Of a stretch of DNA of 64,000 nt, positions 45,023 to 53,734 are shown piece by piece. Numbering within the stretch: the stretch's first letter is position 1; each line of letters begins with the position of its first letter. The stretch comes from Escherichia coli. GTDB taxonomy: Bacteria > Pseudomonadota > Gammaproteobacteria > Enterobacterales > Enterobacteriaceae. Where the stretch lies: the NCBI RefSeq assembly GCF_003790525.1, contig NZ_CP033635.1; one strand, written 5' to 3'. The notes under the pieces are model-generated. The model was not told the origin of the DNA and did no database searches. It saw nothing but the letters and a program-made list of their open reading frames with translations. Made by a program: the position numbers and the translations under genes.

Positions 45023-46381
45023 TTAATTCACCTCAGAAATCTCTTCCAGCGACACCTTCCGCGTTTCGATGCCAAAAATGGAGAGAACCAGCGCACAGAG
45101 CACTAACATGACACCAAGCACCATAAACACCGTAATCGACCCATAATGTGTTAATAATGCCGCAACGCCATAGGGCGTGAAGACTGCGACGATCCGTCCG
45201 ACGGCATTAACGAAACCCGAACCACGCAGGCGTAAATGCGTTGGCCAAAGTTCCGGGATATAAACCGCCGACGCGAAGCACACATACATGTATAAAAAGA
45301 AGATCATCACCAGGCCATAGATTAAAATCGCCCACTCTGTAGTTTGAATTGAATAGATATAGCCTAACACAGCAATAATAATAAGTAAGGCAGAGCCAAA
45401 TAATCGACGAGGAAAATGATCAATAATTAATGCCGCAATAAATATCCCTACCGGAGCGCCAATCATAATAACAGCGGTCATTAATATTGATTTATCAACA
45501 TCAATGCCGGAGTTAACAAATATGGTCGGTATCCATACGGTGATGGTATAAAGCGAAATGTTCATTGCAATTAACACAGTAATCGCGACTAATGTACGTC
45601 GTAACATTTCCCCTTTAAACAGGAGCCAGAAGGTACCCTTGATTACCTTAACCTTGCTGTTGCTCTGGTTCAAAGTAAGCGGGGGTAAACGAATACTCTT
45701 CTCTCTTTCAATTTGCTGCTCTACTTCACGAAGTTGGCTTTCTGCACCTGCGATTTGCCCTTTCCCTGCCAGCCATCGTGGCGACTCAATAAAGTATTTA
45801 CCTGAGAGAAACCAGGCTAACAGTATGCCAATACCGCCCAGCAGAAACATTATCCGCCAACTAAAAAAAGCGATAACCACCACGCCTATCGCCGCAGACA
45901 GCATGGGCGACCAGTTACCAACAAATGAGAGCCGCGCGGACCATTTTCCACGCACCGTCGCGGGGATAAACTCCGTAAATGAGGCATAGCCAACCATAAT
46001 CAGCGCCCCCATTCCTGTGCCCATCAGGAAGCGAAAGAAGATGAGCCAGTACATATCAGGGACAAAAGCGGCCCCTGTTGCCGCAATACCGACGATGAGA
46101 AGATTTATGCGAAAAGCCCTGCGCCGCCCAAAATAATCACCGATGAACCCACCGGTAAGAGAGCCGATGAAATAACCAAACATTAATGCCGAGGTAAAGG
46201 CGGCATTGAGGAAATTATTTGACCATCCATTGCTTACCAGCTTTGCTAAAACAACATTGCCTGAATAACTCAAAAAACCCGTTAATAACAGACTAAAGCT
46301 TATAATACCAAATATACGATAATGAAACCGGGCCAAAGGCAAGCGGTCCAGTCTTGCGCCAATTTGATCATATTGTTCCAT
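45023..46381 (-). CDS. ydjE: MFS transporter YdjE
   Basis: 452-aa polytopic MFS-type ORF in the conserved position. Confidence 0.85.
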   Translation of the reverse strand: MEQYDQIGARLDRLPLARFHYRIFGIISFSLLLTGFLSYSGNVVLAKLVSNGWSNNFLNAAFTSALMFGYFIGSLTGGFIGDYFGRRRAFRINLLIVGIAATGAAFVPDMYWLIFFRFLMGTGMGALIMVGYASFTEFIPATVRGKWSARLSFVGNWSPMLSAAIGVVVIAFFSWRIMFLLGGIGILLAWFLSGKYFIESPRWLAGKGQIAGAESQLREVEQQIEREKSIRLPPLTLNQSNSKVKVIKGTFWLLFKGEMLRRTLVAITVLIAMNISLYTITVWIPTIFVNSGIDVDKSILMTAVIMIGAPVGIFIAALIIDHFPRRLFGSALLIIIAVLGYIYSIQTTEWAILIYGLVMIFFLYMYVCFASAVYIPELWPTHLRLRGSGFVNAVGRIVAVFTPYGVAALLTHYGSITVFMVLGVMLVLCALVLSIFGIETRKVSLEEISEVN

Positions 46382-46497
46382 TAGGTGCCTCGGATTTGCT
46401 AAAAAGGTAGCAATTGCGGCAAATTCACTTGCCGCATCTTTATCATCATTTTATTTCCAGGCGCAGGAACAAATAATATTGACAACGTGTGCTAAAA

Positions 46498-47256
46498 TTA
46501 CCACACCAGCTGGATATTATTGTCTTTGCAAAATGCTATCCACTCTGCACCCGGTGATTTATCAGTTATTATGTAATTAATATGACTAAAGTCAGCTAAC
46601 TGGACAAAAGCTTTGCGATCAAACTTAGAGTGATCAACCAATAACGCAACTTCTGTCGCCTGACGGATCATTGTCTTTTTGATTTCAGCTTCCGCTTCGT
46701 TAGAGTCCAGCGCGCCGCTGTTAATATCAAGACCTTTACAACTCATTACCATGATATCGACATGGTAGCGGCTGATGATCTCTTTAGTAATTCTTCCTTG
46801 CAGGGAAAGTGTATTTTTGTTTAGTTCCCCACCCGTTGAAACGACTTTAATTTCTGACTGAGCCAGAACATGAATCGCTTCCGCCGAGTTGGTTAGCAAC
46901 GTCAGGTCACTACGGTCCTGTAACAATTTGAGCAATTCCATTACGGTACTACTGGAATCGGCTGCCATGGTGGTTTTATTGTCGACAAAGGGTAGTGCCT
47001 TGCGTGCAATAAGCTGCTTCTCTTCATAAAACGATGAAGCGCGCTTATAAAAATGGATATTCTCCGTCAACATCGCTGTATTTAAAACAGCACCACCATA
47101 GGTTCTGGTCAAAAAGCCTTCATCTTCCAGCTTCTCAAGATCGCGGCGAATGGTTTCTTCGGTTACCTGAAAAATCCCACTCAAATTTGAGACTGTCACC
47201 TTTTTATCGTTGGCAACCATTTGCTTAATTGCCTGAATCCTGTCTTTTGCCGCCAC
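46498..47256 (-). CDS. ydjF: DeoR-family transcriptional regulator YdjF
   Basis: 252-aa ORF with N-terminal DeoR HTH. Confidence 0.85.
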   Translation of the reverse strand: MAAKDRIQAIKQMVANDKKVTVSNLSGIFQVTEETIRRDLEKLEDEGFLTRTYGGAVLNTAMLTENIHFYKRASSFYEEKQLIARKALPFVDNKTTMAADSSSTVMELLKLLQDRSDLTLLTNSAEAIHVLAQSEIKVVSTGGELNKNTLSLQGRITKEIISRYHVDIMVMSCKGLDINSGALDSNEAEAEIKKTMIRQATEVALLVDHSKFDRKAFVQLADFSHINYIITDKSPGAEWIAFCKDNNIQLVW

Positions 47257-52631: not shown

Positions 52632-52657
52632 GCGATAACGCTCCTTCAGGAGAGTAG

Positions 52658-53734
52658 TTATTCATCAAAGTCGTAAGTCATGATCACTTTGATTGCGGTT
52701 TTATCGACCATCGCATCAAACCCTTCGCGCCATTGCGACAGGCCGATACGATGCGTGATCATCGGTTTGACTTTGATAGCGCCGCTGGCTAATAGCCTGA
52801 TAGCGTTACGCCATGAGGTGGAGTCATAGGCCATATGCCCAATGATGCTTTTGTTCCAGGCGGTAATGTCATTAATCGAGAAATCAAGAGGTTTGAAGCC
52901 CATTCCAACGCGTACCACTTCCCCATTCGGGCGGAGCATTTCGATGGCTTGTTTCAATGCGATATTGGCACCGGAGCATTCAATCACCAGCCCCAGATTG
53001 TCTTTGCCACAAATTTGCTGGCAGCGTGCCACCACATCTTCGGTAGAACCATTTACTACTGCCGTCGCACCCAGTTCTTTTGCAACCGGGAAGCGGACCG
53101 CCACATCTTCTTGTAGACCAACGACGACGATATTTACCGCCCCCATAATCCGCGCCATTTGTACGGAGAACAGTCCGAGTGGGCCAGTGCCGATGACGAC
53201 TACATCCTGACCAGGGAGGAATTTCGATTGCTGCGCGATGGATTTGTAGGCATTGCAGATAGGGTCAAGTACGGCTGCGTCCTCATAATCAACACCATCA
53301 GGGATTTCCCACAACGCATGACGATGAATTTTGAGAATTTCACCAGGAACCAGACAATATTTGGAAAAACCACCGCCCCAGGTATTGTTATCCAGACCAA
53401 GGTTTACTTTTTCTGTACAACACAGAAAATCACCTTGTTCACAGGCCGGACAAACGCCGCAGACGTGACCGCTGTTATCTGACACGACGCGTTGCCCCAC
53501 TTTCCAGTCTTTGACTTTTTCACCAACCTGCGCAATACAACCTGCGAACTCATGGCCGCGGATAGAGTTAAACTCATCAGAACCGCTATCGACATTGTAG
53601 TGCTTCATGTCTGCGCCGCAGATTGCCGCGGCTTTAATTTCAATCACGACATCTTCCGGGCCACAAATGGGTTGTGGCACATCGATCATCTTGTAGCCGC
53701 CAAAGGCTTTGCCAAACCGAGCCAGTGCTTTCAT
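52658..53734 (-). CDS. ydjL: zinc-dependent dehydrogenase YdjL
   Basis: 358-aa MDR-family ORF. Confidence 0.85.
   Translation of the reverse strand: MKALARFGKAFGGYKMIDVPQPICGPEDVVIEIKAAAICGADMKHYNVDSGSDEFNSIRGHEFAGCIAQVGEKVKDWKVGQRVVSDNSGHVCGVCPACEQGDFLCCTEKVNLGLDNNTWGGGFSKYCLVPGEILKIHRHALWEIPDGVDYEDAAVLDPICNAYKSIAQQSKFLPGQDVVVIGTGPLGLFSVQMARIMGAVNIVVVGLQEDVAVRFPVAKELGATAVVNGSTEDVVARCQQICGKDNLGLVIECSGANIALKQAIEMLRPNGEVVRVGMGFKPLDFSINDITAWNKSIIGHMAYDSTSWRNAIRLLASGAIKVKPMITHRIGLSQWREGFDAMVDKTAIKVIMTYDFDE

Follow-up and report, generated by a model that had tools for sequence, protein, structure and literature searches.

The ydjLKJIHG-ydjF-ydjE locus of an Escherichia coli chromosome: an intact, partly characterised carbohydrate cluster whose gene order recurs in other phyla

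The DNA analysed here, called the window in what follows, is a stretch of 64,000 nucleotides (nt) from the Escherichia coli contig NZ_CP033635.1, and its interval 45023-53734 is filled exactly by eight open reading frames (ORFs), all on the minus strand. A megablast search found this interval 100% identical to E. coli SMS-3-5 (NC_010498.1) and to nine other genomes, and RefSeq names its genes in SMS-3-5 as ydjE, ydjF, ydjG, ydjH, ydjI, ydjJ, ydjK and ydjL, with pncA on one side of the cluster and yeaC-msrB-gapA on the other. The order between pncA and yeaC, the protein lengths and the near-identical sequence establish orthology with ydjE-ydjL of K-12, and Pfam and NCBIfam searches confirmed the family of each of the eight proteins. 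The region is the known ydjLKJIHG-ydjF-ydjE locus, which very probably encodes a DeoR-regulated carbohydrate pathway. The initial annotation of this DNA had proposed the same gene identities, which are borne out by the identity to SMS-3-5, the RefSeq names and the K-12 comparison; its list of families (two MDR dehydrogenases, a class II aldolase, a PfkB kinase, an aldo-keto reductase (AKR), two MFS transporters and a DeoR regulator) agrees with the domain searches, and the limits it had given for a compact minus-strand cluster are exact to the base.

All eight ydj proteins have the length of their counterparts in K-12 strain EMG2, and a codon-by-codon comparison with K-12 revealed neither an internal stop nor a frameshift. 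Nucleotide divergence from K-12 is 0.9-3.2% across the genes, with 21 amino-acid replacements summed over the eight proteins, and the ratio of nonsynonymous to synonymous substitution rates (dN/dS) lies between 0.015 and 0.21. All eight genes are intact and purifying selection acts on them. The difference from the K-12 locus, with which the genes, their order, their lengths and the pncA/yeaC flanks are shared at 97-99% nucleotide identity, is allelic only; for example, residue 70 of YdjI is K here and Q in K-12, and K is found in the majority of 27 homologues. The view that the reading frames are intact at the expected lengths therefore stands, and the further suggestion that the pathway is presumably functional is reasonable in light of the dN/dS values, the catalytic motifs, the near-identity of YdjI and YdjH to the K-12 proteins and the gut-active ydjL promoter. 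The locus is also, as had been said, not novel, since it is named, known and partly studied; the cluster in this genome is already described and in its ordinary intact state.

The spacers inside ydjLKJIHG measure 4-26 nt, and gaps of 136 nt and 116 nt lie ahead of ydjF and ydjE, respectively, in agreement with three units, ydjLKJIHG, ydjF and ydjE. ORFs of up to 190 amino acids (aa) also occur on the plus strand within the cluster; RefSeq leaves them unannotated, and they were set aside as antisense chance ORFs.

The genes and the other features of the locus are collected in Table 1. YdjL and YdjJ, which are 28% identical to each other, both show the domains and motifs of Zn-dependent medium-chain dehydrogenases, namely GHE (at residue 60 in YdjL and 64 in YdjJ), the structural-zinc Cys4 (at 92 and 95) and GxGxxG (at 182 in YdjL and also present in YdjJ). 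The nearest solved structure to YdjL, which differs from its K-12 counterpart by one amino acid, is L-threonine 3-dehydrogenase (2DQ4, 1.2e-42); YdjJ matches PDB 5VM2 with 775 bits, followed by ketose reductase 1E3J and sorbitol dehydrogenase 1PL6. In the NCBIfam search both proteins stayed below the equivalog cut-offs for L-threonine 3-dehydrogenase, L-idonate 5-dehydrogenase and IolM (top score 217 bits against 380), and on their sequences they are placed at the superfamily level only.

YdjI scores 298.9 bits against PF01116 (cut-off 25.5) and 325 bits against TIGR00167 (cut-off 215.6), and it matches PDB 6OFU, the "YdjI aldolase", with 624 bits. Its HWDHGR motif at 79-84, H178 and H206 are present, and H79-W-D-H82, H178 and H206 are invariant in 27 homologues; after the literature on AgaY and FbaA, we take the conserved His and Asp residues to be the metal-binding residues and the catalytic pair. 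The K-12 enzyme, which differs from this one by Q70K, is reported, in a paper that cites the primary enzymology (PMC9602453), to carry out retro-aldol cleavage to dihydroxyacetone phosphate (DHAP). YdjH matches PDB 3H49/3IN1 ("sugar kinase ydjH") with 685 bits and has the hallmarks of PfkB/ribokinase-like kinases, with GG at residue 41 and, at 254, a C-terminal DTIGAGD motif that contains the catalytic Asp. Both YdjI and YdjH are one residue apart from the crystallised K-12 proteins. The 315-aa form of YdjH given by RefSeq agrees residue for residue with the PDB chains. With an alternative in-frame ATG at 49351, given in the ORF list, the protein would be 322 aa long and its gene would run into the end of ydjI; the annotated start varies, from 315 aa in RefSeq here to 310 aa in an O157:H7 record. 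YdjG scores 627 bits on the NCBIfam equivalog NF049922, "NADH-dependent methylglyoxal reductase", for which the cut-off is 550, its Asp-Tyr-Lys-His tetrad is complete (D54, Y59, K85 and H136), and its closest structures are the B. subtilis AKR11 proteins YhdN (1PZ1) and IolS (1PYF).

The two transporters, YdjE and YdjK, are paralogues with 44% identity, and both match MFS_1/Sugar_tr over their full length; neither attained an NCBIfam subfamily cut-off. YdjK differs from the K-12 protein by one amino acid. The regulator YdjF combines an N-terminal HTH_DeoR domain (62.6 bits) with a C-terminal DeoRC sensor domain (167.3 bits) and attained no named NCBIfam equivalog cut-off. Its GTG start is common to all 11 of the other proteobacterial cassettes in which ydjG and ydjF adjoin.

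Table 1. Genes and predicted sites of the ydj locus (positions in the window)
Feature	Position	Strand	Description
ydjE	45023-46381	minus	452 aa, second MFS transporter, separate unit; MFS_1 + Sugar_tr
ydjF	46498-47256	minus	252 aa, GTG start, DeoR/GlpR-family regulator; HTH_DeoR + DeoRC
ydjG	47393-48373	minus	326 aa, aldo-keto reductase; Aldo_ket_red, NF049922
ydjH	48383-49330	minus	315 aa, PfkB-family sugar kinase; PF00294, 248.8 bits
ydjI	49335-50171	minus	278 aa, class II (metal-dependent) ketose-phosphate aldolase; PF01116, TIGR00167
ydjJ	50192-51235	minus	347 aa, Zn-dependent MDR dehydrogenase, polyol/sorbitol-dehydrogenase-like; ADH_N + ADH_zinc_N
ydjK	51252-52631	minus	459 aa, MFS transporter; MFS_1 + Sugar_tr
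ydjL	52658-53734	minus	358 aa, Zn-dependent MDR dehydrogenase, first gene of ydjLKJIHG; ADH_N + ADH_zinc_N
Stem 5' arm, ACCUCUGUUUCU	47365-47376	minus	16 nt past the ydjG stop codon
Stem 3' arm, AGAUACAGGGGU	47263-47274	minus	over the ydjF Shine-Dalgarno sequence
ydjF promoter	47295-47323	minus	predicted, sigma-70-like, TTGAAA-17-GATAAT with upstream TG; within the stem loop
ydjL promoter	53775-53803	minus	predicted from sequence; -35 TTGACC 53798-53803, weak -10 AAGTAT 53775-53780
14-nt inverted repeat, TGTAAAACGCAGAT-4-ATCTGTGTTTTACA	53813-53844	minus	candidate operator, ends 9 nt ahead of the -35
CRP-like site	53841-53856	minus	TGTGA-N6-TTGTA; only left half good
REP-like hairpin	44938-44972		pncA-ydjE gap; 12-nt perfect inverted repeat; weak naRNA4/REP match

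Upstream of ydjL, the TTGAC of the predicted -35 element is kept at the same place in seven taxa of three phyla, and the block with the inverted repeat shows few changes in Klebsiella, Citrobacter and Salmonella. The TGTGATC of the CRP-like site is kept in Escherichia, Klebsiella, Salmonella, Pectobacterium and Agarivorans, with TTGAC likewise kept in the last two. Furthermore, ATCTGTG occurs 23 nt ahead of the -35 element of both the ydjL and the ydjF promoters (47340-47346 in the latter), and 53813-53844 and 47330-47346 are candidate sites for YdjF.

Several other signals were considered in these regions and given up. In E. coli, complementarity between the right half of the ydjL palindrome (53816-53831) and the ydjL Shine-Dalgarno region (53739-53754) amounts to 88%, with a duplex z of -3.2; as a conserved feature this fold-back was dropped, since it did not reach significance in Klebsiella, Citrobacter, Salmonella, Budvicia, Pectobacterium, Agarivorans or Sebaldella. 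Motif enumeration counted TTTGAAAACAAA in 10 of the 14 promoter sequences, with no more than 7 in shuffled sets, and it too was abandoned as an operator because it largely overlaps the ydjF -35 element and the promoter sequences are related. A scan for TGTTTTACA with one mismatch gave scattered, uninformative matches in AT-rich Firmicute DNA. Terminator-like sites numbered 15 where 9.9 were expected, and the scan gave no convincing terminator in the ydjG-ydjF gap; a hairpin in the ydjF-ydjE gap, at 46415-46436, shows only a weak T-run when read on the coding strand. A permissive Rfam scan of 44500-55000 returned two sub-threshold matches, both on the hairpin that resembles a repetitive extragenic palindrome (REP), and no known RNA family in the locus.

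The ydjG-ydjF intergenic region contains a further element. In the minimum-energy fold of the E. coli sequence, ACCUCUGUUUCU pairs with AGAUACAGGGGU, and the two arms enclose the entire intergenic region, including the ydjF promoter-like site, which is the best of the region with 10 of 12 matches plus the TG. By eye, the pattern TTGAAA-17-(G/C/T)ATAnT can be made out again in Salmonella, Pectobacterium, Agarivorans and Sebaldella; in Lachnospiraceae the site agrees if the spacer is 16 nt (TAATAT). Folding of the regions from Klebsiella, Salmonella, Pectobacterium, Agarivorans, Sebaldella and one Lachnospiraceae genome also gave this closing stem as the minimum-energy structure, the arms of the last differing in sequence (UUCACUCCUU / AAGGAGUGAA). 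When the first 35 nt of the intergenic region were paired with its last 35 nt and compared with shuffles (p <= 0.05), the duplex was significant in each of the 12 proteobacterial regions, among them that of E. coli, and in 18 of the 38 regions from all groups; many Firmicute cassettes with longer spacers did not show it. RNAalifold recovered a closing stem of 12 base pairs across 10 taxa, with 85% of the cells of the alignment paired against 52-66% when the partner was slid, and six pairs had changed on both sides, a number reached by 2 of 500 shuffles. The evidence that the stem is conserved is thus moderate.

One explanation is that the stem is an RNA fold-back, in which case read-through transcripts of the induced operon would not yield YdjF, and only transcripts from the gene's own promoter, inside the loop, could do so. 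Alternatively, the arms could be a pair of inverted operators in the DNA on either side of the promoter, an arrangement known from looping repressors. Changes that keep the two sides complementary are expected of an RNA fold-back and of DNA operators alike; the U-G wobble substitutions in the stem lean slightly toward the RNA explanation.

The cluster is not present in all E. coli. It was found in 4,335 of 5,426 complete genomes (79.9%), in 4,254 of them with at least 80% coverage, and its flanks were matched in 5,425 of the 5,426; where the cluster is missing, in about 20%, pncA adjoins yeaC. A frequency of about 80% of E. coli genomes is reportedly also given in abstracts of the primary enzymology papers. 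In the ydj-less records that were sampled, the 15-kb query interval has a common length of 5,988 bp, and this uniform size suggests a single ancestral event. In one such genome the pncA-yeaC spacer is 160 nt long, as compared with 44931-54103 of the window in the allele with ydj, and is made up of a REP-like hairpin and, next to it, about 95 nt unlike that allele. The REP-like hairpin of the window is 82% similar to the one retained in ydj-less genomes and forms the left edge of the presence/absence polymorphism. The filler of about 95 nt, from the hairpin to yeaC, matched neither flank of the allele with ydj nor Klebsiella or Salmonella sequence, and being unrelated, it rules out a clean excision as the origin of the ydj-less allele. 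Among isolates, the prevalence of ydjI by phylogroup is 96.6% in A, 29.9% in B1, 50% in C and 100% in B2, D and E (PMC9602453).

The same pncA/yeaC site holds the cluster in Klebsiella michiganensis, K. oxytoca, Citrobacter and some Salmonella enterica, indicating that the locus is ancestral in Enterobacteriaceae, that its absence in E. coli is secondary and that it is not a recent island. The description of ydj as a backbone feature is therefore right as to the ancestral site and imprecise as to distribution, given its frequency among the complete genomes; ydj belongs to the extended core, not the strict backbone, of E. coli.

Some variation was seen at and around this site. In the O157:H7 strain M1300706001A an IS3-family insertion sequence (IS) splits ydjE (locus L003, 3815-6486), with the remaining cluster intact, and a second record, H39, has the same length and feature list. 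Klebsiella and Citrobacter carry a GH18 chitinase gene between yeaC and ydjL, and in Klebsiella this gap holds an HNH gene too; the Salmonella locus keeps a short remnant only of the chitinase gene, and E. coli has neither the gene nor the remnant (the loci concerned include L011, 2409-4107, and L012, 3698-4168). Outside the cluster, some E. coli, O157:H7 included, have an extra SIMPL-domain gene of about 790 bp between sppA and ansA (L003, 1212-1922), which is missing from the window, where the equivalent position is about 43100-43260.

Beyond E. coli, YdjI homologues with 81-86% identity were found in Lachnospiraceae, Sebaldella and Agarivorans, and context look-ups together with one genome scan showed the order L-K-J-I-H-G-F to be kept in about 50 species-level genomes of four phyla, Gammaproteobacteria, Fusobacteriota, Bacillota and Actinomycetota, mostly gut anaerobes. 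The hosts are Enterobacterales, Necropsobacter, Agarivorans, Sebaldella (Fusobacteriota), Veillonella, Atopobiaceae and Olsenella, together with many Lachnospiraceae, Oscillospiraceae, Ruminococcus, Anaerostipes and Erysipelotrichaceae. In three loci compared in detail with E. coli, identity is 80-89% for YdjL, 82-86% for YdjI and, among the remaining five proteins, 52-84%; across cassettes of the four phyla, YdjI and YdjL share 70-89% identity with their E. coli counterparts. The G+C content of the cassette tracks that of its host (e.g., 37.5% in Sebaldella), which, together with the high protein identity, points to an old spread under strong conservation and not to a very recent transfer. 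Furthermore, the collinearity of seven genes in about 50 species argues that they act as one pathway.

Two accessory genes accompany many of these cassettes. Between ydjL and ydjK, 34 of 56 cassettes have an extra gene of the Ribul_P_3_epim family whose AlsE-like product scores 252 bits on the D-allulose-6-phosphate 3-epimerase model, under the cut-off of 271. In addition, 31 of the 56 have an SDF-family (DctA/GltP-like) symporter gene after ydjF, at the position of ydjE in E. coli, and in most non-proteobacterial cassettes ydjE is swapped for this transporter (examples of the accessory genes are in locus L007, 6737-7447 and 13739-15085, and in locus L014, 4813-5505). The E. coli cassette has neither the epimerase nor the symporter, and carries the MFS gene ydjE instead. 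A symporter of this kind would suit a carboxylate substrate, an epimerase of this kind hexulose phosphates, and the two thus point to different substrate classes. That the cassette is a module shared among gut bacteria, and that ydjF is controlled by an RNA fold-back, are proposals judged jointly, and as a pair we regard them as possible but rather doubtful. If the former is true, the module would be a horizontally shared one serving an abundant, unrecognised gut carbohydrate, and the epimerase and symporter of most non-enterobacterial copies would be new clues to that substrate.

The literature treats the ydj system as a novel, partly characterised carbohydrate pathway, and in vitro YdjH and YdjI favour long-chain monosaccharides with a carboxylate end, L-glycero-L-galacto-octuluronate being the top substrate of YdjI, according to a paper that cites the primary enzymology (PMC9602453). 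The initial term "sugar-acid-type" is accordingly apt for these in-vitro preferences, and it goes too far if taken to mean an established physiological substrate. The ydjL promoter of K-12, inactive in culture, is switched on during passage through the mouse gut (PMC6561318); the same paper cites a rise of YdjG in the cecum of germ-free mice. Finally, a table in PMC8085971 lists ydjLKJIHG under "Crp activation".

The pathway that we propose would begin with import of the substrate by the MFS transporters YdjK and/or YdjE, after which the sorbitol-dehydrogenase-like YdjJ, together with YdjL, would oxidise a polyol or aldonate and so form a 2-ketose. YdjH would then phosphorylate the 2-ketose, reportedly at C1 according to the primary enzymology paper, and YdjI would split the phosphorylated ketose into DHAP, which could enter glycolysis, and an aldehyde, which YdjG or YdjL may reduce or oxidise. 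As for regulation, YdjF would keep the ydjL promoter repressed as long as no phosphorylated intermediate is bound to its C-terminal DeoR sensor domain, and it probably represses its own promoter too; CRP would be the activator of the ydjL promoter, a role for which the conserved TGTGATC upstream was counted. Experimental support is limited to the activities of YdjH, YdjI and YdjG of K-12, and the remainder of the scheme is inferred from families and gene linkage.

Several points weigh against this scheme. The pathway roles given to YdjJ, YdjL, YdjG, YdjK, YdjE and YdjF come from family membership only, the literature gives no natural substrate or growth phenotype for ydj, and the top in-vitro substrate of YdjI has no natural abundance according to PMC9602453. 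An AlsE-like epimerase, if it acts on hexulose phosphates, would be a poor fit to an octuluronate route. Moreover, the loss of the locus in about 20% of E. coli and the IS in ydjE mark it as dispensable.

The same locus could serve a neutral rare hexitol or ketohexose of the allitol, allulose or sorbose type, with polyol dehydrogenases, a ketose kinase and an aldolase yielding DHAP and glyceraldehyde, which the AKR would then reduce. The nearest characterised relatives of YdjJ, sorbitol dehydrogenase and ketose reductase, speak for such a route, as do the epimerase of the cassettes in other taxa, despite its score below the cut-off, and the small aldehyde, methylglyoxal, that the NCBI curated model assigns to YdjG. 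However, the E. coli cassette lacks that epimerase, the DctA/GltP-like symporter of 31 cassettes is of a carboxylate type, and the reported in-vitro preference of YdjH and YdjI is for carboxylate-ended substrates, so that a neutral physiological substrate appears unlikely.

The methylglyoxal-reductase equivalog reached by YdjG could also be taken to mean that the cluster is mainly a defence against aldehydes or stress (methylglyoxal reduction, acid or osmotic tolerance) and not a nutrient pathway, and ydj genes are indeed over-represented in lactic-acid-resistant E. coli (PMC9602453), with overexpression of ydjK reported to aid growth at high salt (cited in PMC6561318). The association with acid resistance is, however, confounded by phylogroup (PMC9602453), and a kinase, a DHAP-forming aldolase, transporters and a regulator of the DeoR sugar-phosphate type make up a catabolic set whose seven genes stay linked across phyla; a defensive function is scarcely credible. 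It is likewise very unlikely that the locus is a cryptic, decaying remnant in E. coli that is no longer useful. Its absence from about 20% of complete genomes, its disruption by an IS in an O157:H7 genome, a G+C content of 46.4% against 49.6% for the window with a low third-position G+C (GC3), and the fact that no phenotype has been described would suit such a remnant, but the dN/dS values, the frames without stop or frameshift in the present strain, the gut-active promoter (PMC6561318) and the very high protein identity across phyla do not. The catabolic scheme described above is thus the explanation that we prefer.

A known chromosomal cluster, correctly identified and in its normal state, is of small importance as such. 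The wider interest lies in a partly characterised E. coli pathway that is induced in the gut, is absent from most B1 strains and is found nearly unchanged in many gut anaerobes; identification of its substrate would close a gap in the metabolism of E. coli and of the gut microbiome. The comparative leads, that is, the accessory epimerase and symporter, the candidate operators and the putative stem that may insulate the repressor, are starting points, not answers.

Parts of the locus resemble systems that are well known. In the fold-back inhibition of the IS10 transposase, sequence upstream of the gene's own promoter pairs with the ribosome-binding site, and only transcripts from outside are blocked. 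The likeness concerns the ydjG-ydjF stem alone, whose pre-promoter arm can pair with the ydjF ribosome-binding site; the difference is that the ydj stem would insulate a repressor gene from the operon under its control.

Among catabolic pathways, the B. subtilis iol system (IolC kinase, IolJ class II aldolase, IolS AKR and IolM-type dehydrogenases) uses the same families and logic as ydj. There, a PfkB kinase acts on a keto acid-sugar, and the phosphorylated product is split by a PF01116 aldolase, giving DHAP. The top NCBIfam match of YdjH is the N-terminal domain of IolC, YdjJ and YdjL match IolM, and IolS is near YdjG. In contrast, the ydj matches lie far under the equivalog cut-offs (141 bits against 300 for IolC), the cluster lacks counterparts of IolB, IolD, IolE and IolG, and uptake is of the MFS and regulation of the DeoR type. 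The E. coli gat/aga systems (GatY/KbaY, GatD and GatR/AgaR) share with ydj a DeoR-family repressor, a PF01116 aldolase giving DHAP and an MDR dehydrogenase, and YdjI matches AgaY 1GVF at 5e-49 and YdjJ the GatD model. These systems rely on phosphotransferase system uptake, bisphosphate substrates and the partner subunits GatZ/KbaZ; ydj instead has MFS transporters and a PfkB kinase, in a cluster without a GatZ/KbaZ-like partner gene. In the L-fucose and L-rhamnose pathways (FucK/FucA/FucO and RhaB/RhaD), a ketose is converted to ketose-1-phosphate and then to DHAP and an aldehyde, on which an oxidoreductase acts. Although the kinase and aldolase folds there, FGGY and PF00596, are unrelated to those of ydj, the chemical logic is the same.

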